Assembly: GCA_040751885.1 (NCBI GenBank)
Contig: JBFMFP010000002.1
Coordinates: forward strand, 1-50,746
From: Nanobdellota archaeon
GTDB taxonomy: Archaea > Nanobdellota > Nanobdellia > Woesearchaeales > GW2011-AR9
Direction: 5' to 3'
Length of the DNA: 50,746 bases
Of the stretch, positions 15,787 through 46,156 are shown piece by piece; the first letter of the stretch is position 1; each line of letters begins with the position of its first letter. The position numbers and the translations under genes were made by a program. Under the pieces are notes generated by a model that was not told the DNA's origin, searched no databases, and saw only the letters and a program-made list of their open reading frames with translations.

Positions 15787-15787
15787 T

Positions 15788-16873: not shown

Positions 16874-16878
16874 TCTTA

Positions 16879-17895: not shown

Positions 17896-17998
17896 AATTA
17901 TTCTAACAAAAGACCGTTTAAAAGACTTATGAAAAAAGAGATGCGATTCCAGAACCCTAATTAACAACCTTTAAAAATACTTTTGTCACAAAATTAGC

Positions 17999-22333: not shown

Positions 22334-22357
22334 TTAAATTTTTTTCTTTAATTTTTT

Positions 22358-23332: not shown

Positions 23333-25532
23333 TGCAGTATTTCTGTCCCTCAAAAGCTTTGACTATCAAGTTTAAATCTTCCTCAGTTAAAGAAGGATGC
23401 ACTGGTAAAGAAAGCACTTCTTTAGCTAATTTCTCCGCCACCGGAAACCCATGTTTATTATATCTCTTATATGCCCTTTGCTTATGAACCGGAAGCGGGT
23501 AAAAAACTGAGTTGTTTACCCCTTTTTCTGATAAAAAATTAATCAGTTCTTCTCTGGTCTTCCTAAATTCCGGGGTAATCCTAACCGTGTACTGATGAAA
23601 AACATTCCCACCTGATATTTCCGGTAGAATTAATCCTTTTATTAAGCCCAATTTTTCATTCAAAAATCTGGCATTTCTCTTTCTCTCTTCATTAAAGCTA
23701 TTCAACTTTTTTAACTGCTCCAGCCCGATGGCTGCTGCGATATCCGTCATTCGGTAATTGTATCCTAAAAAATCATGAAAATATTTTTTTTCCGAGCCAT
23801 GATTAATGATTTTTCTTATCTTAGCTGCTACTTTATCATCATTTGTTGTAATCATTCCTCCTTCCCCCGTAGTCATATTTTTTGTGGGATAAAAAGAGAA
23901 GCATCCGGTGCCGAAAGAACCTACTTTCTTTCCTTGGAATTCGGCGCCATGGGCCTGGCAATTATGTAGAGTCGCATTTAGTACAGAATAAGAATTGTCT
24001 TCTTCAACTTCAAGATTATAAACCTTTCCTGTGTAATGTTCGGTCATGATATTTATGATAGGGGTGTATACAAAATCCAAATCTTGCTTTCCAAAAGTAT
24101 GCCTTGTTTTTTCTTTTGATTTAACCCTTAATTTTTTATAAAGTAATTTTCTTTCGTTTCCAGTTAAGTATAAATGCCAAGAATCGGAAGGGGTAATTTC
24201 TTTGCCTCTTATTTTTACCTTCCCCCCTTTGGTGAAACCGAAAGAAGGAATGCAGCCTAATGAAATAAGCAATAAATATACCTGCCTTGCCAATTCAATG
24301 GAGGTTGTACCAAAATTTAATTTTTCTTTCCTCAGTTGTGCATCGCCCAAAAATAAACCTTCTAAAATTTTTAATACATATTTTTCTTTCAGGCCTAACC
24401 AGGCCTCAGGTAATTTTTTATTTTTAGCTCCTCTCCCAAACAGCACTTCAAATTCTCTAGCAATCTGGTTGCCGTTAATTCTTAATTGCAGCCCTTCATT
24501 TCGTTTATCAATTGTTTTAGTAACCTTTCTGTTAAAAATTTCTTGAGCACAGTTTTCGATAAAAGTTATTAAGTCAGCCTCTTTCTGCCCTAGTGAAAAT
24601 ATTAATCCTCTTTTGTTTACATTACCTTCTGCTAAAAATAAACCAGCTAATTTAAAGAAATCCTCATTTGTCTTTACTGCTTCAAATTTATTTTTAATAT
24701 TATTTGGATGTTTAATAAATTTAAATTCTTCAAGTTGGCAGGAGGGGAATTTTGGTTTTGAGAAGACTAATAAATCATCTGTTCTTAAATCCCGGGCTGA
24801 CACCCAACCTGGTTTTTCTGAGTTTTTATTAAGAACTAATAATGCGTGGTTCTTCGTAAGCTTTAACCCAAGCCGGTTATAGTAATATTTCAGATTTATT
24901 ATTTCTTCGTTAATATCCCTGACAAAAATTTTTGTTACTTTCTTTAATCTTCCTTTATTTGTCCAAACTAAATCCCCTTCTTTAACATCTTCTATATTTT
25001 TAAAACTATCAGAACAGAAGATTTTAGTGCCGGGAACTAAACAAGCATCTTCGATAATGACTAAATTATGTTTTTGGGCAATCTCCTGAATTTTGTCCAT
25101 TTTTGCCGGATTTCCGTACAAATGAACTGGCAAGACTGCTTTAGTTCTTGGTGTTATTGCCGCTTTGATTTTACTAGGATCTATGTTAAATGTATCTTCT
25201 TCAATGTCAACGAAAACGGGTTTTGCTCCGGCCATCACTATCGCATTTGCTGTAGCAATAAAGGTAAAAGGTGTTGTAATAACCTCATCTTCCGTAATAA
25301 CTTTATCTTCTTCACCTTTTCCCTGGCTACCTATCCCGTGCGCCAATAAGGCTGTATGCAAAGCAGTGGTACCGTTGGAAGTGGCTATAGCATGCTTTAC
25401 GCTGATATAACTAGCGAAGGCTTTCTCAAATTCTTCTACTTTCTTTCCCCGGGCTAACTGTCCCGACTCCAAAACTTCCAGAACCGCTTTTTTTTCTTCT
25501 TCTCCTAGGAGGGGTTTAGCTATGGGAATCAT
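23325..25532 (-). CDS. DegT-family (WbpE/WlbC-like) sugar aminotransferase interrupted by an intein
   Basis: The exteins (aa 1-163 and 525-735) join to IIEDA|CQAHGAEFQGKKVGSFG...FYPTKNMTTGEGG, which gives a 374-aa enzyme. Confidence 0.9.
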   Translation of the reverse strand: MIPIAKPLLGEEEKKAVLEVLESGQLARGKKVEEFEKAFASYISVKHAIATSNGTTALHTALLAHGIGSQGKGEEDKVITEDEVITTPFTFIATANAIVMAGAKPVFVDIEEDTFNIDPSKIKAAITPRTKAVLPVHLYGNPAKMDKIQEIAQKHNLVIIEDACLVPGTKIFCSDSFKNIEDVKEGDLVWTNKGRLKKVTKIFVRDINEEIINLKYYYNRLGLKLTKNHALLVLNKNSEKPGWVSARDLRTDDLLVFSKPKFPSCQLEEFKFIKHPNNIKNKFEAVKTNEDFFKLAGLFLAEGNVNKRGLIFSLGQKEADLITFIENCAQEIFNRKVTKTIDKRNEGLQLRINGNQIAREFEVLFGRGAKNKKLPEAWLGLKEKYVLKILEGLFLGDAQLRKEKLNFGTTSIELARQVYLLLISLGCIPSFGFTKGGKVKIRGKEITPSDSWHLYLTGNERKLLYKKLRVKSKEKTRHTFGKQDLDFVYTPIINIMTEHYTGKVYNLEVEEDNSYSVLNATLHNCQAHGAEFQGKKVGSFGTGCFSFYPTKNMTTGEGGMITTNDDKVAAKIRKIINHGSEKKYFHDFLGYNYRMTDIAAAIGLEQLKKLNSFNEERKRNARFLNEKLGLIKGLILPEISGGNVFHQYTVRITPEFRKTREELINFLSEKGVNNSVFYPLPVHKQRAYKRYNKHGFPVAEKLAKEVLSLPVHPSLTEEDLNLIVKAFEGQKYCND
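23961..25043 (-). other. Class-1 intein with LAGLIDADG homing endonuclease domain (361 aa, residues 164-524)
   Basis: Block A is CLVPGTKIF and block B is LKLTKNHALLV. The two dodecapeptide motifs are KLAGLFLAEGN and ILEGLFLGDAQ. Block F is GKVYNLEVEEDNSY and block G is VLNATLHN, followed by a +1 Cys. I checked the boundary codons on the nucleotide sequence: aca at 25041-25043 and att at 23961-23963. Confidence 0.88.
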
Positions 25533-25573
25533 TCAAACTGAAAGCAGAATTTTGGTTTATAAAGTTTGTTTAA

Positions 25574-26125
25574 CTAAGATTTATCCCCGCAAATTTGGCA
25601 CATTTCTCCTCCTTCCTTCCCCCCCTCCAGTTTTCTCCCGCATTTGCAAACATATCCTTGTAAACGAGCAGGATTACCATAAACCAAGCCAAAATCAGGA
25701 ACATCTTTGGTAACAACTGAACCAGCTCCAACCAGAGCGAACCTTCCAATCGTAATATTAGGCAGAACAACTACCCTTGCACCAAGGGAAGCACCTTCTT
25801 TAATTAAAATCTTCCCCTCCACCCAATTTTTATCTTGTTTAAGACTGCCGTCAGGATTAACTGCCCGGGGAAACTTATCATTTGCTAAAACGCAATGTGG
25901 TCCGATAAAAACACTCTCTTCCAAAACCGCGCCATGGTAAAGGGAAGAACTATTTTGGATTTTGCAATTAGCCCCAATTACTACATTTTTATCGATGTAA
26001 ACATTCTTGGCTAGAATACAATTATCCCCGACTATTGCTCCTTCCCGGACCTGGGCCTGATGCCAGATTTTGACATTTACTCCAACTCTAGCGAGAGGAG
26101 AAACATCGGCAGTTGGGTGGATCAT
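25574..26125 (-). CDS. Hexapeptide-repeat N-acetyltransferase (WbpD/WlbB-like) with C-terminal zinc-ribbon tail
   Basis: LbH repeats run through most of the 183 aa. The tail is CKCGRKLEGGKEGGEMCQICG. ATGA overlap with the upstream gene. Confidence 0.8.
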   Translation of the reverse strand: MIHPTADVSPLARVGVNVKIWHQAQVREGAIVGDNCILAKNVYIDKNVVIGANCKIQNSSSLYHGAVLEESVFIGPHCVLANDKFPRAVNPDGSLKQDKNWVEGKILIKEGASLGARVVVLPNITIGRFALVGAGSVVTKDVPDFGLVYGNPARLQGYVCKCGRKLEGGKEGGEMCQICGDKS

Positions 26126-27093
26126 TCAAAAACCTCTGGGTGTTGTTTATACCATTCAGCTGTCCTTCTTAGCCCTTCTTCAAAGTTTACTTTTGGCCCC
26201 CAGTTAATTAATTGCCTAGCTAAAGAAATATCTGCCACATGTCGGCGCACGTCTCCTGGACGGGCTTCCCGATAAACAAAAGGCTTCCGATAATTTAACA
26301 GTTCAGCGATTTTCTTTATCAAAGCATTAACTGTAATCTCCTTTCCGCTGGCTATATTGATTACCTTCCCTAGGGTAACCCGGTTATTATTAATCATTAT
26401 TGTTGCTTCAGCCGTATCTGTAACATAAAGGAAATCCCGCGTTTGCTCTCCATCACCATCAATGAAAACATCTTCACCTTTGAGCATTCTGCCGATGACC
26501 AAAGGAATAATTCCAGCATATTTTTTGGCATTTTGTCTTGGGCCATATTGATTAAAAGGCCTAACAACAGAAACCTCACAGCCAAAGGTATGATGATAGG
26601 ATAAAGCGATATGATCAGTAGCCGCTTTTGAAGCTGCATAAGGAGTTTCCGGATCCAAAGGATGATTTTCGTTCATCGGAACTTGTTTTGCACCTCCCAC
26701 CGCTTCTGAAGAAGAAAACTGAATTAAAGTTTTAAATTTATCTTCCCGCAAAAGTTTGCAGATATTCAAGGTCATCTCAATATTCTTCCTTATAGTCCAT
26801 TCCGGCCTGACCAAAGAAGTCGGTAAAGGAATCACCGCTAAATTAAAAACAACATCAATTTTGTTATCAACAATACAGTCTTTGATATCTTCATAATCTG
26901 AAACATCGCAGCCAATAATTTTTAATTCCGGAAAATTTCGCTGGGCCTCGGCAAGATTTTCTGGTTTGCCTAAAAAAAAGTTAGAAGCTACTGTTATTTT
27001 TTCCGGTTCTTCTTTAATCAAGCGGTCGACTAGATGCGAGCCGATAAAACCGGCCCCTCCAGTAACAAGAATTGATTTATTTTTTAGGCTCAT
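26122..27093 (-). CDS. NAD-dependent NDP-sugar epimerase/dehydratase (extended SDR)
   Basis: Motifs VTGGAGFIGSH and the catalytic YAASKAA. Confidence 0.85.
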   Translation of the reverse strand: MSLKNKSILVTGGAGFIGSHLVDRLIKEEPEKITVASNFFLGKPENLAEAQRNFPELKIIGCDVSDYEDIKDCIVDNKIDVVFNLAVIPLPTSLVRPEWTIRKNIEMTLNICKLLREDKFKTLIQFSSSEAVGGAKQVPMNENHPLDPETPYAASKAATDHIALSYHHTFGCEVSVVRPFNQYGPRQNAKKYAGIIPLVIGRMLKGEDVFIDGDGEQTRDFLYVTDTAEATIMINNNRVTLGKVINIASGKEITVNALIKKIAELLNYRKPFVYREARPGDVRRHVADISLARQLINWGPKVNFEEGLRRTAEWYKQHPEVFE

Positions 27094-28165
27094 TTTTGAT
27101 TATCTCAACAATTTTTTTAGCAATGTTAATATTTAAATTTAATTGAATATTCTTCATTTGCAGCAATTTGCCGGTATTATTAATCAACTCTATAGCGTCA
27201 TTTACTATTTTTTCTCTCCCAGTTCCAACAATTAAATTTTTACCGATATCCGTGAGGTAAGTCCACTCTGTTTCATTTCTTAAAATCAAACAAGGCTTAT
27301 TTAAAGCTGCAGCTTCTTCCTGAATACCGCCAGAATCGCTCATCACAAATAAACAGTTATCTAATAGATTTAAGAAATCCAAATATCCTTGCGGTTCAAT
27401 TAATTTTATTTTGAACGGATGCAGGTTATGTTCGGCCAATATTTTTCTGGTTCTGGGATGTACGGGAAACACTACCTGTATATGCCCAGCGATTTCTTCA
27501 GCGGCTTTGACCATTCCTTTTAAAACTTCAAAATTATCTGTGTTTTCAGCGCGGTGAATAGTCAATAGAATAAACCTGTTTTTTTCCAAACATTCTTCCT
27601 TGAGAATAAATGATTTTTCTCTGGCATAAGCAACATTTCTGAGGGAAGCCTCAATTGCCATACTCCCGGCTACATGGATTCTTTCCTCCGGCAATCCTTC
27701 TCGTAACAGATTTTTGCGGGCTTTTTCATCGGGAGCTATCAGCAGATCTGCACAATGGTCACAGACAATCCGGTTAATCTCCTCAGACATCTCCTTATTA
27801 AAAGAGCGACATCCCGCTTCCAGATGGATGAGTGGGAGATGTAATTTTGCTGCCACCAAAGCTCCCGCTAGAGGGGTATTTGGATCAGCAAATACAACTA
27901 CCCAATCCGGTTTTTCTCGTAAAAGAATTTTCTCAGTTTTAACCATCATCTTTGCTGTTTGTATTGCTTGACTATCAGAACCTACCCTCAATAAATAATC
28001 CGGTTCCCTTAACCATAATTCCTCAAAGAAAACTTTATCCATATTATAATCATAATGCTGGCCTGTATGTATCAGAATATGCTCAAATTCTTGGTCTAAT
28101 AAGGGGATTAAAGGGGATAATTTTATTATCTCCGGTCTCGTGCCTAGAATTGTACAAATTTTCAT
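27077..28165 (-). CDS. UDP-N-acetylglucosamine 2-epimerase family (WecB/WbpI/NeuC-type; hydrolysing or not cannot be told)
   Basis: Motifs GTRPEIIKL, HTGQHYD, HLEAG and DSGGIQEEA. Confidence 0.9.
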   Translation of the reverse strand: MKICTILGTRPEIIKLSPLIPLLDQEFEHILIHTGQHYDYNMDKVFFEELWLREPDYLLRVGSDSQAIQTAKMMVKTEKILLREKPDWVVVFADPNTPLAGALVAAKLHLPLIHLEAGCRSFNKEMSEEINRIVCDHCADLLIAPDEKARKNLLREGLPEERIHVAGSMAIEASLRNVAYAREKSFILKEECLEKNRFILLTIHRAENTDNFEVLKGMVKAAEEIAGHIQVVFPVHPRTRKILAEHNLHPFKIKLIEPQGYLDFLNLLDNCLFVMSDSGGIQEEAAALNKPCLILRNETEWTYLTDIGKNLIVGTGREKIVNDAIELINNTGKLLQMKNIQLNLNINIAKKIVEIIKNEPKK

Positions 28166-28176
28166 TTTTAAAGAAA

Positions 28177-28896
28177 CTATTTCTTCTTTTTAAATAATTT
28201 AAGAAACAAGAGACCGGAGGCAAAAAGAAAATGGCTCTTAATTACTTTGAGCATCCTTATCTTTGAATCGCCAAAAGCTCTTGTGTTGAGCGTGGTGGGA
28301 TACTCCCTGACTTTATATCCTTTATTGAGGGCTAAAATCAGTATTTCAGCGGTGGCTAAAAAATCATCCGACTTAAAGGCAACGTTTTGGATTACTTCCT
28401 TTTTGTAGGCGCGGAAAAGAGCAGTAAAAGTGTATATCCTGGAACCGGTCAAGAGACAATAGATTCCCGTTATGGATTTGCTGAGAAATAAGCGATGTTT
28501 CGGAATGTTATTGTTTCCCAGAGGATGATATGGTGAAGCCGTGACCATATCTGTGTCCTCGTCAAGCACCTTTAACATTTTGGGGATATTCTTGGGGTCA
28601 TAAGTGCAGTCGCTGTCCATGGTAACAATAATGTCTCCCGTCGCTTGGGCAAAACCCGTCCGCATCGCCGCTCCAAGGTTTTTATTAATCTCATGCGGAA
28701 CAATTTTCACATAGCTTTTCTTCCCAAAATAATGGTTGAGCAGCTCTAACGTTCTGTCTTTACTTCCGTCATCAACAAAAATTAGCTCTAATTCCCAGTC
28801 TTTAGACAAACTTTCCAGGACGGGATTTAGCTGGGAGTGGAGGTTTTCAATTCCTTTTTCCTCGTTATAGCAGGGAACAATTAAAGAGAGTTTCAT
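28177..28896 (-). CDS. GT2 polyprenyl-phosphate sugar synthase-like glycosyltransferase (DPM1/GtrB/ArnC-like)
   Basis: Motifs SLIVPCYNEE, FVDDGSKD and TMDSDC. The C-terminal end is hydrophobic. Confidence 0.8.
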   Translation of the reverse strand: MKLSLIVPCYNEEKGIENLHSQLNPVLESLSKDWELELIFVDDGSKDRTLELLNHYFGKKSYVKIVPHEINKNLGAAMRTGFAQATGDIIVTMDSDCTYDPKNIPKMLKVLDEDTDMVTASPYHPLGNNNIPKHRLFLSKSITGIYCLLTGSRIYTFTALFRAYKKEVIQNVAFKSDDFLATAEILILALNKGYKVREYPTTLNTRAFGDSKIRMLKVIKSHFLFASGLLFLKLFKKKK

Positions 28897-28957
28897 AAAA
28901 ACAAAATTAATTGCTTTTATTTATAAATTTTAAGAAAAATAAAGTGTTGGAAATAAA

Positions 28958-29284
28958 TCAAATATATATTACAAAAATCCCCAAAAATATTAAGCAAATT
29001 CCGATTATCTTGAATTTGCTGATCTTCTCTTTTAAGAACACTTTTGCCAAAATGATTGCCCAAAGGTAGCTAATCGAAGCTATAAGATAAATGAAAGTTA
29101 AAGGGGCCTGTTTTAAAGCGTAGATATAAAATAAAAAAGAAACTCCAGCTAAAGTTACAGCCCAAATCAGCTTCTTATTCCGAAAATTTACTTTAAATGC
29201 CGCTCCAAGTTTAAACATTAAAGTGGAAAAAGCACCAAATACTGAAGAGATGAAGATAAAAATTAAAGCTAAAATTATATTCAT
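28958..29284 (-). CDS. Small 4-helix SMR/EamA-half membrane protein (ArnE/ArnF/GtrA-role candidate), subunit B
   Basis: 108 aa with four hydrophobic helices. It overlaps its partner gene by 4 nt. Confidence 0.55.
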   Translation of the reverse strand: MNIILALIFIFISSVFGAFSTLMFKLGAAFKVNFRNKKLIWAVTLAGVSFLFYIYALKQAPLTFIYLIASISYLWAIILAKVFLKEKISKFKIIGICLIFLGIFVIYI

Positions 29285-29634
29285 TTTTTGCTACCTCTGC
29301 TGATAATAATCACGCCTAAAGTAATCAAGCTTAATCCCACCCACTTCTGAGCAAGAATGATTTCCCCTAAAAAATAAACAGAAAGCAAAGTAACAAGAAC
29401 ATAACTGGAAGCCATCACTGGGTAAACCACTGAAAGTTCTCCCATTCGAAAAGCGTAAATATACACCAAAGAGCCAAGAACATAAAGTGCAGCTCCAATA
29501 AGTAAAGGATAATTGTTTATTTGGCTGAGAGAAAGACTAAACTTCGTGCTTCCTAACTTGAGCAGTATCTGGGCTATAGAAACAATTAAAGCACAAAGTA
29601 AAGCCAAAAAAACTGCTTTTGTATTATTTTCCAT
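29281..29634 (-). CDS. Small 4-helix SMR/EamA-half membrane protein (ArnE/ArnF/GtrA-role candidate), subunit A
   Basis: 117 aa with four hydrophobic helices. It forms an overlapping pair with 28958-29284. Confidence 0.55.
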   Translation of the reverse strand: MENNTKAVFLALLCALIVSIAQILLKLGSTKFSLSLSQINNYPLLIGAALYVLGSLVYIYAFRMGELSVVYPVMASSYVLVTLLSVYFLGEIILAQKWVGLSLITLGVIIISRGSKK

Positions 29635-29681
29635 TTATACCAACCTCTTAATTAACTTAATACATATCCAATAGAGCAAGC

Positions 29682-30686
29682 TTATAAATTTTTGTGATAA
29701 GCATTCCAAAAAGAGTCCAATTTTCTTCTCGTGAATTGTGGAGAATTGGGCACAAAAGCTATTCTCTCAGAAATTGCTGAACCGCTCCAAGGAGGCGAAA
29801 ACAAAAAATTGTTCTTTAAAGCTTTGTTCCTCTCCACTCCGGAAGGAAAAATAAATGACAAATAATTAAAACTCGATTCCGCGTCTTTGACGACTATTTG
29901 AGCAACTATTTTTTTATTTAAATAAAAAAAGTTCCTCTTTCTTTTTTGAATATTATCTTTTAAACAATTAATCTGTCTCAAAGCAAAATAAGCTTCTAAT
30001 CGGCTGCATTCAAAGCTTTGGTCCAAAGAGTTGGTTAATTTTAAATCTTCTTTCTTCTTCACCAAGTAAATCATTACCTTTGAAATAAAAAAAGCCCTCG
30101 TTTCATACAGCGAAGCAAACAGCCTCTTTATATAAACTAACGAGGAAGGCCGGCTTTGAAAAGAATCACGCAAATCTCTAATCGCTTGAACATCTTGATT
30201 GGTAATCACAGCCCCTCCTCCAAAATTTACCATCTGCTTGGTAAAGCTGTAAACGGCATAATCCCCAAAAGTTCCGGCCAATTTTCCCCCGTAGCTTGCT
30301 CCCAAAGCATGGGCAATGTCCTCAATCAGGATTAAATTGTACTTCTCACAAAGCTGCTTTATTTCTGAAATTCCGCTGGGATTCCCGTAGGTGTGGACAA
30401 AAATAATGGCTTTAGTGTTCTTATGGATGTTCTTTTCCACTAATTTGTAATCAAGATTAAAAGTTTTCTCGTTGACGTCCACTAAAACCGGCCTTGCTCC
30501 TGCTCTTCTCGCCGCCCCAATTACACTTTCACAGATAAATGACTGGACAATAACTTCATCGGTTTCTTTAAGCTTTAGGCTCAGAAGCAGCGTATAAAGT
30601 GCATTCCGGCAGGAACCGAACAGAACCGCGTTCTTCAATCCTAAAAAAGAAGACAATTCTTTTTCCAGTTTCTGCTTGATATTCAT
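29682..30686 (-). CDS. DegT-family aminotransferase, short form (ArnB-role candidate)
   Basis: Motifs LIEDIAHALGASYGG and the catalytic Lys segment YSFTKQMV. Confidence 0.75.
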   Translation of the reverse strand: MNIKQKLEKELSSFLGLKNAVLFGSCRNALYTLLLSLKLKETDEVIVQSFICESVIGAARRAGARPVLVDVNEKTFNLDYKLVEKNIHKNTKAIIFVHTYGNPSGISEIKQLCEKYNLILIEDIAHALGASYGGKLAGTFGDYAVYSFTKQMVNFGGGAVITNQDVQAIRDLRDSFQSRPSSLVYIKRLFASLYETRAFFISKVMIYLVKKKEDLKLTNSLDQSFECSRLEAYFALRQINCLKDNIQKRKRNFFYLNKKIVAQIVVKDAESSFNYLSFIFPSGVERNKALKNNFLFSPPWSGSAISERIAFVPNSPQFTRRKLDSFWNAYHKNL

Positions 30687-30756
30687 TTTATGGCGAGTTT
30701 CCCTTAAAATTAAGGATTTTTGTTATATTTTGTGCTTTTTTCCTCCTCAAACATTT

Positions 30757-31806
30757 CTACTTAAACTGCCTAATCACCAAAGGGCTAATGATTCGAATAA
30801 CCCCCTTGGGCAGCAAACTCCAGGCTTTTCCGTAAAATTTGTATAGGCTAAATGACTTTTCCAGCGAGGGAATATTTTTTTCTTTTTGAGCATAAAAATA
30901 ATAAGGTATTTCTCTTTTCTCTTTGCACCATCTCTCCTTGAAAGCATAGAGGTTGCCTTCATTGAGCTCTTTGGTGGTTCCGCCAAAATCAAGCACCTTA
31001 TAACCCTTTTGAATTCCGAATTTAATAACTTCCCACAGCAAAACATAATAAGGGCATAAGTGGGCATATTTGTAATCTGCCCCGGCAAAGCCATATTCTA
31101 TTTCTTTCCGATGCAAAAAGAAAAAGGCCGAAGCTATCGGCTTTTCTTTCAGATAAGTAACGCCCACCAAACAATTGCATGTTTCCAAAGCCTCCTTAAA
31201 TAGGCCATAAGGCCAGGCTGGAACCCCTCTTTTTTTCTTAGTGTTTAAATAGATTTTATAAAAGTCATTTAATAGCTTTTCTTCTTTATCTAATTTTACC
31301 TTCAAATTATTTTTTTGGGCTTTTTTAATGTCATAACGCACCCGCTTGTCCAAGGATTTAAACGTTTCTTCTTCCGTAGTCTTAAATGGGAGCAGAAAAT
31401 CTGTGATCAGCGACTGTCTCACCATTCCCTCAGCTAATTCCTGCTCCAGTTCCTTTTTCTGCCTGATTTCCAGAAATCCCGCCGTGGAAGAAAGCTCTTT
31501 TGCTTTTTCCAATAATCTTTTTTTGCATTCCACATCTTTTCCCACTACGCCACCAAAAGGAAAAAAAGGGATGGAGACCATTCTTTTTCCTTCGATAAAA
31601 CTTGTTGCCTCAAACAATGGAAGGGCACCGACGATTTTTTCTCTCTCCTTGGCGATTAAATATACCGACTTAAACTTAAAATGCTTTTCTACCAATTCTT
31701 TAACCTCTAAACTATGTTCATAAAGAGCGTCTTCATTTTCCTTTACAAATTGCCTATACTGCTCATAATCCTTTTCTTCCAGAAGGGAAATCAGGTATTT
31801 TTCCAT
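30757..31806 (-). CDS. FemAB-like / Acetyltransf_6 transferase, paralog 3
   Basis: 349 aa and collinear with 31837-32892. Compare FEHTLLWKE with YEHSLEVKE, the KGVLPLF/GALPLF segments, the RKFRGVPGYPYSYF/KKKRGVPAWPYGLF segments, and the shared C-terminal ...SP(K/L)VIRQF. Confidence 0.6.
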   Translation of the reverse strand: MEKYLISLLEEKDYEQYRQFVKENEDALYEHSLEVKELVEKHFKFKSVYLIAKEREKIVGALPLFEATSFIEGKRMVSIPFFPFGGVVGKDVECKKRLLEKAKELSSTAGFLEIRQKKELEQELAEGMVRQSLITDFLLPFKTTEEETFKSLDKRVRYDIKKAQKNNLKVKLDKEEKLLNDFYKIYLNTKKKRGVPAWPYGLFKEALETCNCLVGVTYLKEKPIASAFFFLHRKEIEYGFAGADYKYAHLCPYYVLLWEVIKFGIQKGYKVLDFGGTTKELNEGNLYAFKERWCKEKREIPYYFYAQKEKNIPSLEKSFSLYKFYGKAWSLLPKGVIRIISPLVIRQFK

Positions 31807-31836
31807 ATTATTTTTCCATTTTATTGTTTTCAGTTC

Positions 31837-32892
31837 TCAGACAAATTGCCTGATAACTTTTGGGCTTAATAATTTTACTGCCCTGAGTGGCAGCCGTTTC
31901 CAGACTGCGCTGGCTGCTTTAAACATCGCCGCATTGTCTGCCGCAGGCGGGCCTTTAGACTGGCAGAGGTAAAAATAATGGGGAATTTCCCTGATTTTGT
32001 CAGCCCATTTTTTCTTAAATTCATACAAGCCGCCTTCGTTTGTATTCAATGTAGCTCCTCCCAAATTAAACTGCTCATATCCATTTAAACAGGCTTCCTT
32101 AATGGCTTCCCAAAGGATCAGGTGATAAGGCTGCAACTTGAGCATTTTTCTGTCCTGCACTGCTCCGGCGAAGGCATAACGCATCTCTTTTTTATAAAAA
32201 ATCAAAAATATGGAAGCCAGCGGATTCTCCCCGTACATGGCGAGATAAATTTTTGCTTTGTCTCCAAACTTATTGATGATCTCTGCAAAATAAGAATAAG
32301 GATATCCGGGCACTCCCCGGAATTTTCTGGTCAAAACAAACAAGTCATAAAATTCATTAAGCTCCTTTGCCGAATTTCCTACTCTCCAGGTTAACCCGCT
32401 TTGCCGGGCGGTTTTAATTCCCCAGCGCACACTCCCTTTAGGCAGTTTTTTCCAAACTCTCTCCGGGCTGTCGGACAATTGCAGGGAAAAATTAAAAACC
32501 TCTTTCCTTAATTTAAACTCCCTGAAACTTGCTCTTTCTTCTTTTTCCCGAATCTCCAAAAAACCAGCTTTTTCCCTCCGGGCCAAATCCCGGGCAAAAA
32601 GAATTAATTTTTCTCTTATCTCCTCACTATCAGCCAATGTCCCCGTATGGACAGCATAGGGGGTTGAGACAATCCTTTTGCCGAAGATGCTTTTGGCCAG
32701 GAACAAAGGCAGAACCCCTTTAATTGTACCCCCTCCTTCCTCAAAAACAACATATAAAGGCTTAAAGCCAAAGTTTTCTTCCAGTATTTCTTTCCAGAGG
32801 AGAGTATGTTCAAAAGCAGAACCGGGGTGATTATCTACATAATCCTGATATTTTTTTTCATCCGCCTGAGCGAGAAGAGAACAATTTTCCAT
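31837..32892 (-). CDS. FemAB-like / Acetyltransf_6 transferase, paralog 2
   Basis: See 30757-31806. This is an adjacent tandem paralog. Confidence 0.6.
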   Translation of the reverse strand: MENCSLLAQADEKKYQDYVDNHPGSAFEHTLLWKEILEENFGFKPLYVVFEEGGGTIKGVLPLFLAKSIFGKRIVSTPYAVHTGTLADSEEIREKLILFARDLARREKAGFLEIREKEERASFREFKLRKEVFNFSLQLSDSPERVWKKLPKGSVRWGIKTARQSGLTWRVGNSAKELNEFYDLFVLTRKFRGVPGYPYSYFAEIINKFGDKAKIYLAMYGENPLASIFLIFYKKEMRYAFAGAVQDRKMLKLQPYHLILWEAIKEACLNGYEQFNLGGATLNTNEGGLYEFKKKWADKIREIPHYFYLCQSKGPPAADNAAMFKAASAVWKRLPLRAVKLLSPKVIRQFV

Positions 32893-32906
32893 TTTTTAAA
32901 CCATTT

Positions 32907-33803
32907 TTAAATCACTTCTGCAAAATCTTGGGTAGTGACTATTTCATAATCATGGGATATTTTTCCGATAATTTTTTCGCAAAGAGGGAAACGTTTTTGA
33001 AAACTTATTTTGCTTAAGTGACCTAACCTTGAGTCAGTCAAATCGTCGGAGAGATCAGCCGCATGAAAGGCATAATTCAGGTAAGGGCTGAACTGGCTAT
33101 TCATCTGGTAAGCAAAGTTAAAATATGAACGGCCAAACTTAGCGGCAAAAGTGGGATGAAAAGGAACCCTTAACCAGGGCATCACCGAACAGGGAACTTC
33201 CCTAAGCTGCATCTCTCCTTCTTTAACTATTTTATCAGGGGAAGGATGGTAAGGCCGGTGTGGCGCAAATACCCAGCTATGTCCTGGCCCATAGGTTCTT
33301 TTCTCACCTCCGGAAAAGAGGCGATTTATTCTCAAAATAAGGGGATAAAAGGGAGTAGGAATTATTGAGGAATCGTAAAGATATCCCCTCTCTTCCAGAA
33401 TTTTCAAAATTTCTCCGTCCAAGTCAAAACCGGGAGCCTTAAAACCGAGTGGCCTCTTTCCCGTAATTTTACGGATGACTTCTTCTCCCTTACTGATTTC
33501 CCAAAGTTTTTCCCCCGAAGAAAGTTTTCTAAAGCCAAACCGGTGAGAATAACTGTGATTGGCAATTTCATGACCGGCTTTGCTTATTTCACGAATCAGC
33601 CCAATTTTATTTTTGCATTCGCCATCTTTGCCAACCAAAAAAAAAGTTGCTCTTATGTTATACTTGGCAAATAAATCCAGGAAACGCGGGATAGAGCTTT
33701 CAAAGACCACGTCAGGGTAAATCTCTGACTTGTAGCCATAATATTCCAAGTTCGTCCAGAGCCCATCCATATCCACCTGTATTGTGCCCGTTTTCTTCTT
33801 CAT
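32907..33803 (-). CDS. Polysaccharide deacetylase, CE4/NodB family (ArnD-role candidate)
   Basis: Motifs TFFLVGKD and AGHEIANHSYSH. Confidence 0.8.
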   Translation of the reverse strand: MKKKTGTIQVDMDGLWTNLEYYGYKSEIYPDVVFESSIPRFLDLFAKYNIRATFFLVGKDGECKNKIGLIREISKAGHEIANHSYSHRFGFRKLSSGEKLWEISKGEEVIRKITGKRPLGFKAPGFDLDGEILKILEERGYLYDSSIIPTPFYPLILRINRLFSGGEKRTYGPGHSWVFAPHRPYHPSPDKIVKEGEMQLREVPCSVMPWLRVPFHPTFAAKFGRSYFNFAYQMNSQFSPYLNYAFHAADLSDDLTDSRLGHLSKISFQKRFPLCEKIIGKISHDYEIVTTQDFAEVI

Positions 33804-33806
33804 GAT

Positions 33807-35483
33807 TTAATCTGTTCCCTTGCTTATTTCTTTGTCTTTTTTAAAAATAAAAATTACTGGCATTTTCTGAGGGTTCCCATCGACAAGAACATCTCTTTCC
33901 ACAACTTTAACCAGTTTAAAACCCAAACTTCCGAAATAATCTAGACTCTGTTGAGTAATTGGCCAGTACCATTTAGGTTGGTAATACTCCCATACATCAA
34001 CCTCAAGATAAACATCGCTTTCCCGGGATAAATTTTTAACATCCTCTTCAAAATTCTTCTGGCTGACATTGTCATAATTTTCAGTGTAACGATAAGGGCT
34101 GCGTAAATTCCAGATGCTTCCTCCTAAATCCAAGTCTTGAGGAGGGCCGCCAAATTCCCGTTCGGCAAATAAACGGATAGAGCGGTATTCCCCGGCAAAG
34201 ATGGGATCCTTTTCCGGCACGTTTTCCTTCAGCCAAGTTCCTGCTTCCTCATAGCCAAGATAGCTGAAAGACTTGTTGTAGATCAGAGGGTCCCCCACCT
34301 GGTAATAATTCCAGCTAATCAGCAGAACTGCTCCTATGACTACAAAGTATTTTACCGCTTTATGGGTAAACAAAGAGATATAGGAACCCAGTTCATCCAA
34401 AGCGAAAGCGGCTAAGATAACCGCAACCGAAAGCAAAGGAAGCATATAGCGGTCTTGAGTGTTGTCAACATTGATTTCAAAGAACAGCCAATAAAATAAA
34501 AAGAGGATAATTCCAAAATAATATTCTTTTTTCTTATAGAAAATAACAAATAAAGCTCCCAAAACAACAAAAGGGATTAAATACCAGGAAAAGATCCATT
34601 CCAGCATCCCTAATGCTTCAAAGCCAAAAGGCATCCCTCTTCTCGCTAAAAACAGATTGAAAATGCGGTCTAGGCCCCTGATTTTGAATAAAAGTTTAGC
34701 CACAAAATGGGCTACCAAAACAGATCCTACCGGTATCAGCCAGGAAACTAAAACTGCCTTGTTTTTGATCATTTCTTTTCTTTTAAACAGTAGATAGTAA
34801 ATCACCAATGCAAAGACGTACAAAGAAGATTGGGCTTTAGTGAACATAGCAGCCAAGAACATTATTCCTGAAGTAATACCCCATAAAATCTTATTGGTAT
34901 GTTCTAACTTTATCATACAATACAGGAGTATAATGGTGGTTACTAACAACGGTGAATCAGCTAAAGGCCGAATGCTGTAAAACCAAAAAAGATGATTAAA
35001 TGTTAGCAGAGCTGTGGCTATTAGCCCAGTAAATTTGTTTTTTAATTCTGTTCCCAGGAGATACATGAAGATTACACCAGCCAGGGCATAGAGCATAGCA
35101 ACGATTTTCCCGGAGAGAAGAATGTTTTTAGTAAACAAATAAAAAAGAGCAGTAAGTGTTTGAATTGGGGCATAATCGCCAAGCAAATAACCCCAACTAA
35201 AAAATAAAGAGGGGGCCTTTGTTACTTTGATGGCAAGCCACAAATGCACAGCCGCATCATTCCAAAGGCTTTCCTGGCTAATATATTTCAAACGAATTAG
35301 GAAAGCGAGGAAAAGGATAAGGAGAAAAACAAGGTTGTATTTGTCACTTAAAAAGGAAAGAGTTTTTTTCTTAAGGTTTTCTGTAAAAGAGAGCTTTTGG
35401 GCGGGGGAAACATCTTTAGTTGAAATGATGCCATTTTCTGTTGCCTTTTCAGAAGAGGGAATTTGATTTGTCTTTTCTTCCAT
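33807..35483 (-). CDS. GT-C fold glycosyltransferase (ArnT/PMT-like)
   Basis: Polytopic, with the first-loop motif ESLWNDAAVH and a C-terminal soluble domain. ATG at 35483 is preceded by GGGGTGG. The track ORF extends to a TTG at 35549. Confidence 0.7.
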   Translation of the reverse strand: MEEKTNQIPSSEKATENGIISTKDVSPAQKLSFTENLKKKTLSFLSDKYNLVFLLILFLAFLIRLKYISQESLWNDAAVHLWLAIKVTKAPSLFFSWGYLLGDYAPIQTLTALFYLFTKNILLSGKIVAMLYALAGVIFMYLLGTELKNKFTGLIATALLTFNHLFWFYSIRPLADSPLLVTTIILLYCMIKLEHTNKILWGITSGIMFLAAMFTKAQSSLYVFALVIYYLLFKRKEMIKNKAVLVSWLIPVGSVLVAHFVAKLLFKIRGLDRIFNLFLARRGMPFGFEALGMLEWIFSWYLIPFVVLGALFVIFYKKKEYYFGIILFLFYWLFFEINVDNTQDRYMLPLLSVAVILAAFALDELGSYISLFTHKAVKYFVVIGAVLLISWNYYQVGDPLIYNKSFSYLGYEEAGTWLKENVPEKDPIFAGEYRSIRLFAEREFGGPPQDLDLGGSIWNLRSPYRYTENYDNVSQKNFEEDVKNLSRESDVYLEVDVWEYYQPKWYWPITQQSLDYFGSLGFKLVKVVERDVLVDGNPQKMPVIFIFKKDKEISKGTD

Positions 35484-35515
35484 TAAACCACCCCAATAAC
35501 TGTTTCTTTCCAAAT

Positions 35516-35525
35516 CTTTATAAAG
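35516..35525. promoter_or_regulatory. Palindromic TATA-like element CTTTATAAAG centred between divergent start codons
   Basis: It lies about 38 nt from the minus-strand ATG at 35483 and about 40 nt from the plus-strand ATG at 35561. Confidence 0.25.
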
Positions 35526-35560
35526 CTTATCAAACCCCGGTGCTATCAATTAATAATACA

Positions 35561-37402
35561 ATGAAATTTGAAAAGATAAGTTGGAAGATCATATTAATAT
35601 TTCTATTCTTTTCAATTATATTTTCTTCCTATTACCTTTATTTCTTGGTAAAACAGCCAAATACACAATTATTTACAGTTTCAGAAAGGGAAGGAAAATT
35701 TTATGGGCATCCTGGCCCTGATGAATTATTTGCATACGGACTAAAAATAAGCGCATTTAGCCAACATTTATTTAAAGGTAACGATCCTTATATCAAGGAA
35801 TACACTGCCGGGAAGGCATATATATTGGAATTATTTCCCTTGGTGTTTTTTGGTTTGCTATTAAAAATATCGACTCTTAATTTTATGTATCTTTTCTCAT
35901 TGATCAGTTTAACATTTATAAAATTTTTACTACTATTCTACATATTTTCAAGCATAACTAAGAACCGCTATTTTAACATCATGTCGCCAATAATAGTGGT
36001 AGCTTACCCCCTCTTTTTTCTTTATCCTTTTTATTTTTTATATCACGGCATTAAAATAGGTTTTTTTTCCAAAGAACTTATAATTACAATGGGGCAGGAA
36101 CTAACCCCTTATTTTTACTCATTTAGATTATACCATGGTCTGTTCTCCTGGACTCTCTTTATAGGCTCGTTTATTATTATTTATTATCTGGTGTTTAAAG
36201 AGATTAATCTTAAAAAAAGAATAGTATTTACTTTTCTTCTGGCTTTAAACTTTTATACTTACTTTTATCAGTGGATAATAATTGGGGGGGCATTTTTATT
36301 CCTGCAGATATTAACCATTAAAAAAAAATACAAGCCAAGACTATTCTCATTTGTACTGTATGTCATTTTTGGGATTCCTGCTTTAATAATTATCACCAAA
36401 AAGGGATTACTATCTTCTAACCCTGAAAGGTTTATGTTAGAATTTGGTTTATTAAAGGACAATTTAACACTAAGCATTTATTTTTTATTTTTCTTCTTAG
36501 CCTCATTAATCCTTTTTACTTATCTAAACAAAAAAGAGCACCCAAAGTTAACTATTTTTCATTATTCAAAGCTATTACTGCAAAACCATTATTTCTTGAT
36601 AACCCTTAGTTTGTTTATTAGTTCTTTAATTTTGATGAATATTAACCTGGTCATTCCTTTCCCTCAAGCACCCTTCCATTTTAATAAATTTAATGATTTA
36701 TTACTGGCGCTCATAGTTTTAATTCAACTGGCTCTTTTAGTTGAAATGGCGCCATCTAAGAATGAAAGAAAGATCAGAAGATTCATCCCCTTTATTTTAT
36801 TAATGATTCTTCTGGTAATAAGCGTAGTGCCCAATCTTGCTTTAACCCAGTACCATCCCATCCCCCCTTTTGAAGAAAGCAGAAGAGAATTGTACAGTTA
36901 CTTAAAAACAGAAAACATCACGGAAAAAATAATAATGACAGTGGATATTGATGAGAATAGCTTGCTTGTTTTATACACGAATAACTATGTAATAATTGGT
37001 AATGCCTTTTCTTCGGAAGTCGGCATTGCTGAAAACTTAGAAAGATATGGATTTATAATAAATACTTTAAATTTAAATAAAAGCCTAGTTATAAATGATT
37101 TGATCACGGAAAAGAAAACCGGGGTTTGGAGCGCCTATCACTATTTAGTTCATGGAACATTTTTTAGAAGAAATAACCAAACTTTAAAAATGGAAAATAT
37201 ATTGACCCAACAAGATACAAAGACCATAATCAAAATAATCAATGAACCTAAGAGAAGATACTCTTTTGACTACGTCCTGGCGGGCCCATTAGAAAAGAAA
37301 TATGGTTTTAAAGGGTTGAATACAAAAGACTATCAACTAATTTTTAAAAACAAGAGGTATGAACTTTACCGGCATTGTTCAAAGTTTTCGGCAGGCTCTT
37401 AA
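35561..37402 (+). CDS. Large polytopic membrane protein of unknown function, with GT-C-like architecture
   Basis: About 613 aa counted from ATG 35561. An acidic motif (GPDELFAY) follows helix 1. More than 10 helices follow, then a soluble tail of about 170 aa. The track start at 35441 would overlap the divergent gene. Confidence 0.5.
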   Translation: MKFEKISWKIILIFLFFSIIFSSYYLYFLVKQPNTQLFTVSEREGKFYGHPGPDELFAYGLKISAFSQHLFKGNDPYIKEYTAGKAYILELFPLVFFGLLLKISTLNFMYLFSLISLTFIKFLLLFYIFSSITKNRYFNIMSPIIVVAYPLFFLYPFYFLYHGIKIGFFSKELIITMGQELTPYFYSFRLYHGLFSWTLFIGSFIIIYYLVFKEINLKKRIVFTFLLALNFYTYFYQWIIIGGAFLFLQILTIKKKYKPRLFSFVLYVIFGIPALIIITKKGLLSSNPERFMLEFGLLKDNLTLSIYFLFFFLASLILFTYLNKKEHPKLTIFHYSKLLLQNHYFLITLSLFISSLILMNINLVIPFPQAPFHFNKFNDLLLALIVLIQLALLVEMAPSKNERKIRRFIPFILLMILLVISVVPNLALTQYHPIPPFEESRRELYSYLKTENITEKIIMTVDIDENSLLVLYTNNYVIIGNAFSSEVGIAENLERYGFIINTLNLNKSLVINDLITEKKTGVWSAYHYLVHGTFFRRNNQTLKMENILTQQDTKTIIKIINEPKRRYSFDYVLAGPLEKKYGFKGLNTKDYQLIFKNKRYELYRHCSKFSAGS

Positions 37403-37686: not shown

Positions 37687-38798
37687 TATTATAGTTAATC
37701 TCTTAAATATTCAAACATTTTTGGCATAGCTTTAGTGTTGTCAAAAGTTCTTCTTAAGCGGTACTTTGCTGCATCAAGTGATGGGATTACCCTATTTGCC
37801 AGTGCATTCCTTCCCGGCTTCCAGCATTGTTCTGTGGGATTTTCTTCCGGAGAATACTTTGGGAAGTGTTCAATCTTGACTGTCTTTCCGTGTGCTTTGA
37901 GGTAGGCTCTTACTTTTGCTCCGTCATGTGCCCTTGCACCGTCGACAAAAAGCAAGAACTTTCCCCATCTCTTTCTGAGTTTTTCCAGAAACTCAATAAA
38001 CTGCTTTTGTCTTTTCCTCTTTCTGAAAAAATAAACAAAGCTCTTTGCACTTCGTGCACCAAATACATTTGTACACTCATTTTTATGGTTTATTTTGACG
38101 ACAGGATGGCTTCCTCGCCGAGCCCATCCCCTCATGACAGGAGGAATTAAACCAAATGTGGCCTCATCCTGCGTGCCTACAACAAACCCTTTTCTCTGAT
38201 AATATCTTGCCTTTTGTCTTGCTTTTTTTTAAAAAAGCAGTATTTCTTCTTCACTTGGCTTTCTATAGTGCTGTTTTCTAGGCCGTTGCATAGAGAATCC
38301 GAGAGAAACCAATAACCTCCACACATGCTGATGAACAAATTCAATATGATACTTCTTTTTGAGCAAATCTTTGAGCTCTTTTGTCGTCCATAAACCTGTG
38401 CGATTGTGTGGAGGACCATGTTCAAGATCTTTGACAAGATTTTTTCTTTGGGAGATGGTAAGGGTTGCCGGTCGGCCCGACTGTTTAATGCTATCTTTTG
38501 CCTGGATGCCTCGTCGTGAAAAATTTCTTAGCCAACCATGAACAGTGTTACGGGAGATGTTAACCTGATGCGCAATGTCATCAATACTTTTGCCCTTTTT
38601 CCTATGGATTGCAGCTAAAAGCCGTAATTTCGGCTTTGCTTTTGCTTCTTGTTTATACATTTCCTGAAGTTGCTTCAGAGTTGTGTTCGGTAAAAAACTA
38701 TCACCTTTGGGAAGATTCCACATTGTAAATCACCTCATCAAGAAGGAAAGTAGAATTAGTATATAAAAGTTTTGAAATTAATGAGATGTGCTATTATA
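37687..38798 (-). mobile_element. Complete IS630-family insertion sequence (about 1112 bp)
   Basis: The imperfect terminal inverted repeats are tattatagttaatctcttaaatattcaaac (left) and tataatagcacatctcattaatttcaaaac (reverse complement of the right end). They match at 21 of 30 positions ungapped. A single transposase reading frame fills the element. Confidence 0.75.
37695..38723 (-). pseudogene. IS630 DDE transposase, one frame of 343 codons interrupted by a single in-frame TAA
   Basis: The track ORFs 38229-38723 (HTH part) and 37695-38135 (FVDGARAHDG, YSPEENPTEQCW) are in the same frame. The stretch between them has no stop and reads ...EEILLF*KKARQKARYYQRKGFVVGTQDEATFGLIPPVMRGW... Confidence 0.8.
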
Positions 38799-43702: not shown

Positions 43703-43747
43703 ATCAAGAAAAATTCACCCCTCCTTTAAAATTTTATTGTTTTAAGT

Positions 43748-44545: not shown

Positions 44546-44546
44546 T

Positions 44547-46153: not shown

Positions 46154-46156
46154 AAT

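Follow-up and report, generated by a model that had tools for sequence, protein, structure and literature searches.

What might a pair of Fem-type enzymes modify in an archaeon, given that DPANN archaea lack murein? The question is raised by a gene cluster of a Nanobdellota archaeon that lies in a stretch of 50,746 nt (positions 1 to 50,746 of the forward strand of contig JBFMFP010000002.1, assembly GCA_040751885.1; hereafter the window). An original prediction, made from the sequence, had read eight tightly packed genes of this window as an Arn/Gtr-type module for delivering a lipid-linked amino sugar, in which two FemAB-like transferases attach one or two amino acids to the sugar before it is flipped and transferred. 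All eight open reading frames (ORFs) are present on the minus strand at the positions below, and the domains assigned to them were borne out by profile searches:

33807–35483, minus strand: GTC_A, a GT-C glycosyltransferase of PMT_2/ArnT-like type (Pfam PMT_2, 45.3 bits; cutoff 26.1)
32907–33803, minus strand: CE4, a metal-dependent de-N-acetylase (Pfam Polysacc_deac_1, 71.6 bits)
31837–32892, minus strand: Fem1, a FemX-like tandem-GNAT transferase (Pfam FemAB [PF02388] and Acetyltransf_6)
30757–31806, minus strand: Fem2, a second FemX-like transferase (Pfam FemAB [PF02388] and Acetyltransf_6)
29682–30686, minus strand: sDegT, a short DegT-family pyridoxal phosphate (PLP) enzyme of 334 aa (DegT profile, positions 27–192 of 360)
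29281–29634, minus strand: EamA1, a half-size EamA/ArnE-ArnF-like protein, candidate flippase subunit (Pfam EamA, 39.9 bits)
28958–29284, minus strand: EamA2, a half-size EamA/SMR-like protein, candidate flippase partner (Pfam EamA, 44.4 bits, and a weak SMR match)
28177–28896, minus strand: GT2, a polyprenyl/dolichyl-phosphate sugar synthase of DPM1/ArnC/GtrB/PpgS-like type (Pfam Glycos_transf_2, 112 bits)

From the GT-C gene to the GT2 gene, the intergenic gaps measure 3, 14, 30, 70, 47, −4 (an overlap), and 61 nt; the GTC_A frame has its longest start, a TTG, at 35549 and its first ATG at 35483. The co-directional cluster does not stop at 28177 but extends down to 20657, with gaps of no more than 41 nt beyond GT2, giving 14 genes in all (~20657–35483, minus strand). 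We estimate a probability of roughly 55% that this 14-gene operon encodes a three-component, lipid-carrier surface glycosylation pathway with an added aminoacylation stage, running through the steps proposed below. The broader claim is more tentative, and we hold it at a little short of even odds: that Fem-type enzymes aminoacylate a dolichyl- or polyprenyl-phosphate-linked amino sugar from charged tRNA, that the product is flipped and installed by a GT-C enzyme, and that this constitutes a new, widely distributed class of three-component system.

Both Fem proteins, which are 37–38% identical to each other, matched the FemAB profile PF02388 (72.2 bits for Fem1 and 72.0 bits for Fem2 vs. a cutoff of 24), and their scores against the FemX equivalog model NF047883 (55 and 45 bits vs. 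a cutoff of 500) mark them as members of the family and not as FemX orthologs. The AlphaFold2 model of Fem1 (pLDDT 95.7) is a tandem GNAT. When it was compared with the PDB by Foldseek, the best match was Weissella FemX_Wv (E = 6.5e-20; TM-score 0.73–0.76), and further top matches included Staphylococcus aureus FemA and FemX, Sba18/Sbb17, and the aminoacyl-phosphatidylglycerol (PG) synthase domains of MprF. All of the eleven best structural matches are aminoacyl-tRNA-dependent enzymes, and identity to the Fem-type matches was just 13–19% in the structural alignments. In contrast, the acetyl-CoA tandem GNATs VipF and Eis reached a TM-score of only ~0.4, and other tandem GNATs (MAB_4324 and a clavulanic-acid pathway protein) 0.52–0.54.

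HMMER aligned the F304-K305 pair of FemX (1ne9/4ii9) onto F292-K293 of Fem1. All of 40 homologs (26–63% identity) keep K293, and at least 90% keep F292; Fem2 has the F-K motif in the form AFKERW. Lys305 is the single reactive active-site residue of FemX, and the equivalent Lys is essential in DhpH-C (PMC12945691). By both its sequence and its modeled fold, Fem1 looks like an aminoacyl-tRNA-dependent transferase far more than like an acetyl-CoA GNAT, and the concern attached to the original prediction, that the Fem-like ORFs might prove to be plain acetyl-CoA GNATs, is made less likely by the Fem-type structural matches and the retained Lys305 equivalent. Fem chemistry on a sugar amine also has precedent, since the Fem-like enzyme Orf11 glycylates the amine of an amino sugar from Gly-tRNA (PMC12945691). 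The PDB titles of Sba18 and Sbb17 call them aminoacyl-tRNA-dependent peptide synthases, and both were crystallized with the amino-sugar acceptor streptothrisamine.

From their sequences, Fem1 is predicted to N-aminoacylate the unmasked sugar amine using aminoacyl-tRNA, and Fem2 to add a second residue, either on the first amino acid or on a second amine of the sugar. In known Fem systems, paralogs act sequentially, building short peptides. Across the related loci described below, the Fem1 and Fem2 orthogroups are clean, the first gene scoring about twofold higher with Fem1 and the second gene about twofold higher with Fem2; therefore, the duplication is old and both copies have been maintained. 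Loci with one Fem gene hold the Fem1 type, which makes Fem1 the core Fem of the module. The family is large, with 320 clusters (50% identity) at E ≤ 1e-30. There were no Mur genes within the window, and the closest Fem homologs all come from DPANN archaea. A scan for transmembrane helices found none in CE4, Fem1, Fem2, or sDegT, and CE4 also has no signal sequence. Since they lack transmembrane helices, these four proteins fit a cytoplasmic location, which is where aminoacyl-tRNA occurs. Scans of the window for tRNAs and RNA families returned nothing, so that no dedicated tRNA lies beside the Fem genes.

The other genes of the original eight would load, unmask, flip, and transfer the sugar. 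For GT2, the best PDB sequence matches were Pyrococcus furiosus DPMS (5mlz; 94 bits), ArnC (80 bits), and GtrB (51 bits), and its motifs D43-G-S-x-D47 and D94-x-D96 are invariant in 15 orthologs; on sequence grounds, it is predicted to make a polyprenyl- or dolichyl-monophosphate sugar. Invariant across 16 orthologs of CE4 are D11, D13, H83, H87, and H247, which by analogy would form the Asp/His-x3-His metal site and the catalytic Asp and His of an enzyme that, by prediction, frees the amine of one acetamido group on the sugar. EamA1 and EamA2, each with about four transmembrane helices, are encoded by genes that overlap by 4 nt, and EamA2 is always paired with EamA1 in two-Fem loci; their matches to ArnE and ArnF are weak and below cutoff, and we consider them a candidate flippase pair. 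Finally, GTC_A has at least eight transmembrane helices and a C-terminal soluble domain of ~170 aa, and carries, directly after its first transmembrane helix, the residues E71-S72-x-W74-N75-D76...H80, invariant in 11 orthologs. It had no sequence match in the PDB, even at E = 1, and its predicted role is to pass the completed sugar from the lipid carrier to an acceptor outside the cytoplasm.

Beyond GT2, the cluster continues with six further genes:

27077–28165, minus strand: a WecB-family non-hydrolysing UDP-N-acetylhexosamine (HexNAc) 2-epimerase, WbpI-like (TIGR00236, 332 bits, above its cutoff of 210)
26122–27093, minus strand: an SDR epimerase/dehydratase, optional (Pfam Epimerase and GDP_Man_Dehyd; LegB-like/RmlB-like below cutoff)
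25574–26125, minus strand: a hexapeptide-repeat N-acetyltransferase, WbpD/MMP0350-like (Pfam Hexapep, 80 bits; NeuD/PglB/VioB subfamily, 95 bits, below cutoff)
23325–25532, minus strand: a canonical DegT sugar aminotransferase, WbpE/MMP0351-like, with an intein insertion (DegT profile matched over two stretches, 428 bits)
22358–23353, minus strand: a GFO/IDH/MocA oxidoreductase (hereafter GFO; NF040723, archaeal UDP-GlcNAc 3-dehydrogenase, 346.7 bits vs. a cutoff of 450; Pfam GFO_IDH_MocA)
20657–22333, minus strand: GTC_B, a second GT-C enzyme of PMT/PMT_2 type at the cluster end (PMT_2, 46.7 bits; PMT, 33.2 bits; ~10 transmembrane helices)

A dehydrogenase/aminotransferase/acetyltransferase trio of this kind forms the Methanococcus MMP0352/0351/0350 route to UDP-2,3-diacetamido-2,3-dideoxyglucose and also follows the WbpB/E/D logic. 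In the cluster, GFO, the canonical DegT, and the hexapeptide acetyltransferase, which is predicted to mask the newly made amine, fill the oxidation, amination, and N-masking roles of ArnA and ArnB. The original prediction that ArnA is absent thus holds for the protein itself, but not for its function, which these three downstream genes supply. WecB adjoins GT2 in nearly all loci, whereas the SDR is missing from several. In some relatives, WecB and the SDR form one fused protein of 715–747 aa (locus L005, 17441–19588; locus L006, 16218–18461), which implies that they catalyze successive steps on the nucleotide sugar. The intein of the canonical DegT carries a LAGLIDADG homing endonuclease (domains Intein_splicing, LAGLIDADG_3, and Hint_2); the L001 and L003 orthologs are intein-free, and the L012 ortholog (17182–19236, 2055 nt) is long enough that it may carry an intein too. 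The position of GTC_B is shared with L003, L012, L014, L015, and the P0003 locus.

The short DegT protein stands apart from this canonical enzyme. It keeps the PLP Lys and an EDxAHALG motif, is missing ~30 N-terminal residues, carries a clade-specific two-helix insertion of ~32 aa, and has a C-terminal half that lies outside the Pfam profile. Its AlphaFold2 model (pLDDT 91.8) has the sugar-aminotransferase fold, with QdtB, WbpE, and ArnB at TM-scores of 0.75–0.79. The sDegT clade is DPANN-specific and sharply bounded: E-values jump from 1e-69 to 1e-34, and query coverage drops from 79–100% to 48–78%. In-frame sDegT::EamA1 fusions of 470–514 aa (P0119; P0123/L009, at 3384–4796 of L009; P0140) occur in at least two lineages, with unrelated linkers, and, since they recur, they suggest that sDegT works at the membrane, beside the flippase. 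We rejected the original assignment of sDegT as the ArnB counterpart: it belongs to a separate short clade and is probably not the ArnB equivalent, because a canonical DegT and its GFO partner lie downstream. The SDR was considered as a supplier of the keto substrate for sDegT, but it is absent from several loci that keep sDegT, which also counts against equivalence with ArnB. A membrane-anchoring role for the insertion was dropped, since the insertion did not stand out as amphipathic.

To assess conservation, we used the proteins of the window as phmmer queries against the ORFs of all fetched loci (labeled L0xx; P0xxx denotes proteins), and a scan of GTDB species representatives was seeded with the 18 closest Fem sequences. 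The closest Fem1 homologs (40–63% identity) belong to Woesearchaeota/Nanoarchaeia-type DPANN archaea. The scan hit 14 species-representative genomes, all of them metagenome-assembled and titled as Woesearchaeota, Nanoarchaeia/Nanoarchaeota, or an unclassified archaeon, together with six “Methanosarcinales” titles, which we took as a placeholder. Found again in 14 species-level genomes and in several metagenome contigs, the gene order is not due to chance. In full, it reads GT-C, CE4, Fem1, Fem2, sDegT, EamA1, EamA2, GT2, WecB, (SDR), acetyltransferase, DegT, GFO, (GT-C), and it was found in nine DPANN arrangements, i.e., the window itself, L001/L011, L003/L004, L005/L020, L006/L022, L010, L014, L015, and L019; three others (L009, L012, and L013) hold part of it. 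Fem1 identity over these full and partial loci is 36–63%. With five of six distant contexts (described below) in addition, the combination is strongly conserved in relatives, so that the original prediction also passes its test by gene conservation. In one Woesearchaeota genome, an insertion of ~8 kb lies between Fem1 and Fem2 (L013, 11041–19179). In L005 (= L020; GCA_018670085.1), a cyclodipeptide synthase gene (PF16715; 14668–15333, minus strand) lies between EamA2 and GT2; this, too, is an aminoacyl-tRNA-using class of enzyme.

A smaller version of the module, with one Fem gene, was found in L016, L017/L018, L021, and the P0003 locus, where CE4, a Fem1-type Fem, GT2, and the sugar-supply genes are present. 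A divergent PMT_2 GT-C gene adjoins CE4 in these loci, on the opposite strand in L016, L017, and L021 and co-directionally in the P0003 locus, and the EamA pair gives way, in L017 and at the P0003 locus, to a stand-alone LPG_synthase_TM protein of the MprF type. Among the distant Fem relatives (27–30% identity), five of six contexts have CE4 (with DUF3473), a small GT2, Fem, and PMT_2, and four of those five also have LPG_synthase_TM or DUF2304. L024 is a compact five-gene operon of Fem, GT2, DUF2304, CE4, and PMT_2; L023 has Fem, GT2, DUF2304, and CE4, with PMT_2 and LPG_synthase_TM ~0.8–3.4 kb upstream on the opposite strand. A fusion of DUF3473, the C-terminal domain of CE4, to Fem was also found and, like the sDegT::EamA1 and WecB::SDR fusions, strengthens the case for the association. 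Directly after the cluster in both L023 (11132–17038; 3,063 aa) and L024 (12566–17056; 2,515 aa) lies a gene for a giant surface protein with GDSL-lipase, fn3, Big_1, and invasin-type domains, a candidate acceptor.

We propose that the pathway would run as follows. GFO, the canonical DegT with its intein, the hexapeptide enzyme, and WecB, with the SDR as an optional member, would make a UDP-2,3-diacetamido-2,3-dideoxyhexose, which the DPMS/ArnC-like GT2 would put on dolichyl (polyprenyl) phosphate at the cytoplasmic face of the membrane. Since the host is a DPANN archaeon, the carrier lipid is probably dolichyl phosphate rather than undecaprenyl phosphate. The cytoplasmic CE4 would then take off one N-acetyl group in an ArnD-like step, and Fem1 would move an amino acid from aminoacyl-tRNA to the freed amine; in the larger version of the module only, Fem2 would add a second residue, onto the first amino acid or a second amine. 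At or beside the flippase, sDegT may carry out a PLP-dependent step, which might transaminate the sugar further or act on the free α-amine of the new residue. EamA1/EamA2 would flip the product, and GTC_A would transfer it to an extracytoplasmic acceptor. Since the host is archaeal, this acceptor would not be lipid A or murein; a protein of the surface or S-layer, or the glycan on such a protein, is the most likely candidate.

Several points weigh against this pathway. Family and fold assignments, catalytic residues, and co-occurrence are what we observed, and from them we infer every enzymatic step, as well as the order, donor, sugar, and acceptor. The sequence of loading, deacetylation, and aminoacylation leans on analogy with ArnC/ArnD and on the adjacency of GT2, CE4, and Fem. 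With the exception of WecB (TIGR00236; 332 vs. 210), scores against NCBIfam equivalog models fall below cutoff, and none of these other components therefore counts as an ortholog of a characterized enzyme. There is no UDP-GlcNAc 6-dehydrogenase within the window, and the identity of the sugar is correspondingly tentative. sDegT is the least understood component, and its insertion was not among the top segments in a helical hydrophobic-moment scan. The amino acid donor of the Fem enzymes is not readable from sequence, and the Acetyltransf_6 family also holds CelD/BcsL-type proteins, whose donor is not known. R211 of FemX_Wv, a contact to the diphosphate of UDP-MurNAc, aligns with an invariant Tyr in these proteins, a difference that is no positive sign of a lipid acceptor. 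Finally, in L007, the sixth of the distant contexts, CE4 and Fem lie in a Wzx-type cluster with diacetamido-uronic genes and no GT-C within 10 kb.

The L007 arrangement also bears on a different order of events, in which CE4 and Fem would act on a soluble UDP-sugar and GT2 would load the already aminoacylated sugar for flipping and GT-C transfer. There, CE4 and Fem sit among genes for UDP-sugar dehydrogenase, GFO, DegT, Hexapep, and WecB; moreover, FemX_Wv, the best structural match, takes a nucleotide-linked acceptor (UDP-MurNAc-pentapeptide), and CE4, Fem1, and Fem2 are soluble, with no segment that spans the membrane. However, in all other contexts the constant partner of CE4 and Fem is a small DPMS/PpgS-like GT2 and no nucleotide-sugar enzyme, and in the Arn pathway the CE4 step comes after lipid loading. 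The UDP-diphosphate contact R211 has given way to the invariant Tyr, and fusion of sDegT to EamA suggests that the chemistry takes place at the membrane. We regard action on the UDP-sugar as unlikely, but as the most probable of the alternatives. A somewhat smaller likelihood attaches to the idea that the Fem-like proteins are tandem-GNAT N-acyltransferases that use acetyl-CoA, acyl-CoA, or another activated donor and re-acylate the amine to give an unusual N-acyl sugar. That the donor cannot be read from sequence, that the proteins also match Acetyltransf_6 with its CelD/BcsL members, which lack a proven donor, and that some sources label homologs as GNAT N-acetyltransferases would all suit such an enzyme. 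Conversely, the eleven best structural matches all depend on aminoacyl-tRNA, the TM-scores for VipF/Eis (~0.4) and for the best other tandem GNATs (0.52–0.54) fall well below those for FemX (0.73–0.76), and there is no variation at the Lys that FemX and DhpH-C use for catalysis. In an alignment read by eye, the segment YAFAGA corresponds to YMYAGS of FemX and not to the GNAT acetyl-CoA loop Q/R-x-x-G-x-G/A.

The genes might also be mere neighbors in a glycan island, with CE4 and Fem serving an AglB-dependent N-glycan or a Wzx-exported polymer unlinked to GT2, EamA, and GT-C. The window is indeed a dense glycan-biosynthesis island, with nonulosonic-acid genes, a Wzx-like flippase, further GT2 genes, and an additional CE4 gene accompanied by another Fem-like gene, the third, and L001 has STT3/AglB, Alg13/14, and a Wzx-like gene just upstream. 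Yet, the combination outlasts rearrangement, including a swap of flippase type, a strand switch of the GT-C gene, and the 8-kb insertion in L013, while the island genes vary; distant relatives have it in compact operons of five (L024) or four (L023) genes, and spacing within the module is operon-like. We consider chance neighborhood improbable. A single pathway in which a carrier-linked amino sugar is deacetylated, aminoacylated, flipped, and transferred is the reading that we prefer.

We compared this pathway with systems already known. The logic of oxidizing and aminating a UDP-sugar, masking it with an acyl group, loading by GT2, unmasking by CE4 at the cytoplasmic side, flipping by a pair of four-helix proteins, and GT-C transfer is common to the Arn pathway for 4-amino-4-deoxy-L-arabinose (L-Ara4N), and GT2, the EamA pair, and DegT give weak but specific matches to the ArnC, ArnE/F, and ArnB models. 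Nevertheless, every Arn equivalog model scored far below its cutoff (ArnB, 104 vs. 631; ArnC, 92 vs. 529; ArnD, 23.6 vs. 382; ArnE, 33.6 vs. 92; ArnF, 27.6 vs. 99), and there is no ArnA and no formyltransferase here, the SDR reaching 66.7 bits vs. the ArnA cutoff of 777. The sugar of the module would be a hexosamine-derived 2,3-diamino sugar with an acetyl mask, whereas the Arn mask is formyl; the archaeal host has no lipid A; and two Fem-type enzymes and a short PLP enzyme lie between the unmasking and flipping genes. In its logic the module resembles the Arn pathway, yet it does not belong to it. Of the scheme originally predicted, the architecture (a polyprenyl-phosphate sugar synthase, a small flippase pair, and a GT-C enzyme, with embedded CE4 and Fem) stood up on the families and their conservation, while the Arn label did not.

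A second parallel is the galactosamine (GalN) modification of mycobacterial and corynebacterial arabinogalactan (PpgS Rv3631, Rv3632, Rv3779), in which a GT2 makes polyprenyl-phosphate HexNAc, which is deacetylated and flipped before a GT-C enzyme installs the free-amine sugar; the deacetylase and flippase of the mycobacterial system are still unidentified (PMC9671496). GT2 of the module matches the PpgS model, and distant Fem relatives adjoin a GT2 and DUF2304 pair. Rv3632 may likewise be a DUF2304-type protein. The GalN system differs in having no Fem-type enzyme, its product being a bare amine. With FemX/FemA/FemB, MurM/N, and Orf11/Sba18/Sbb17, Fem1 has the tandem-GNAT fold and the catalytic Lys in common; however, the coiled-coil insertion of FemA is not found in the Fem proteins of the module, and they are encoded beside a lipid-sugar synthase, a flippase, and a GT-C enzyme, not beside Mur enzymes or in an antibiotic cluster.

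The best NCBIfam models for both Fem and CE4 were TIGR03019 and TIGR03006, the PEP-CTERM/XrtA-associated FemAB protein and deacetylase, although all scores are below cutoff (TIGR03019, 188 and 167 bits vs. 260; TIGR03006 for CE4, 69 vs. 276). A pairing of FemAB-like proteins with CE4 in polysaccharide loci is already implied by these model names. No PEP-CTERM/XrtA genes were seen in any context examined, where GT2/flippase/GT-C systems were found in their stead, and we know of no demonstrated function for the PEP-CTERM-associated FemAB family. In Clostridioides difficile, the HexSDF operon combines a glycosyltransferase, a CE4 deacetylase, and an MprF-type flippase domain that stands alone, so that an amino sugar is displayed on the outer leaflet (PMC10128005), and an LPG_synthase_TM-type protein is also present in one-Fem variants of our module; in contrast, the HexSDF product is a diradylglycerol glycolipid and not a carrier-linked donor, and there is no GT-C and no Fem. 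In archaea, GT2-type dolichyl-phosphate (Dol-P) hexose synthases and outward-facing GT-C enzymes add sugars outside the membrane. Module GT2 matches the AglJ and haloarchaeal Dol-P-hexose transferase models, but the Haloferax system (AglD/AglJ, AglR, AglS) has no deacetylase, PLP, or Fem enzyme, and its flippase candidate is Wzx-like, not an EamA pair.

Other genes of the window are recorded here as observations in their own right. At its left end, genes for a radical-SAM/SPASM protein and a Wzx-like flippase lie between a second CE4 gene and a third Fem-like gene (241–1215, plus strand; 1220–2311, minus strand; 2386–3438, plus strand; 3472–4992, minus strand). The third Fem-like protein (Acetyltransf_6; TIGR03019, 103 bits) keeps the Lys293 equivalent, in a Y-K context, and pairing of CE4 with Fem is thus present twice in one 50-kb island, in the second case apparently in a Wzx-type setting. 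A nonulosonic-acid set of legionaminic/pseudaminic type occupies 13007–20586, with NeuB, a cytidylyltransferase::SDR fusion, a PseB-like dehydratase, and a hexapeptide-acetyltransferase::DegT fusion (17999–19531). Genes for PAPS_reduct (CysD-like), an EF-Tu-like GTPase (CysN-like), and a TauE exporter lie at 5775–8767 on the minus strand, beside two Phosphodiest-family genes, and hint at sulfate activation for glycan sulfation. B12-binding radical-SAM genes, often by a methyltransferase gene, are found at 42260–47746 (minus strand) in the window and near the Fem module in L001, L005, L006, L016, and L026; they may add a further modification to the same glycan. Just upstream of the cluster lies an IS630-type transposase gene, apparently split or frameshifted into adjacent ORFs (37695–38135 and 38229–38723, both minus strand; DDE_3 and HTH). 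The divergent upstream gene at 35441–37402 (plus strand), for a 653-aa membrane protein with ~11 transmembrane helices, was excluded from the module, as Pfam returned nothing for it and none of the related loci holds a homolog.

In the literature that we searched (on FemAB, deacetylases, DPANN and archaeal surface glycosylation, and flippases and glycosyltransferases), Fem-type enzymes within a GT2/flippase/GT-C system are not described, and we found no description of the module in DPANN archaea. The module is real, conserved, and undescribed in that literature, and its key chemical claim is plausible. Transfer of amino acids from tRNA outside translation occurs on bacterial peptidoglycan bridges, membrane lipids (MprF), protein N-termini, and a few antibiotics. 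If the claim is true, a carrier-lipid-linked sugar would be a new class of substrate, and Archaea a new domain of life, for Fem-type enzymes, and the large “PEP-CTERM-associated FemAB” family and its partner deacetylase would gain a function. The core of GT2, CE4, Fem, flippase, and GT-C is also present in distant lineages, which could open many genes to re-annotation, and the module may hint at the kinds of gene to look for in the search for the mycobacterial GalN deacetylase and flippase. For DPANN archaea, which live attached to their hosts and for which surface chemistry is central and almost unknown, the pathway would place sugars bearing an amino acid or a dipeptide on the cell surface and would extend tRNA-dependent envelope chemistry to the Archaea.

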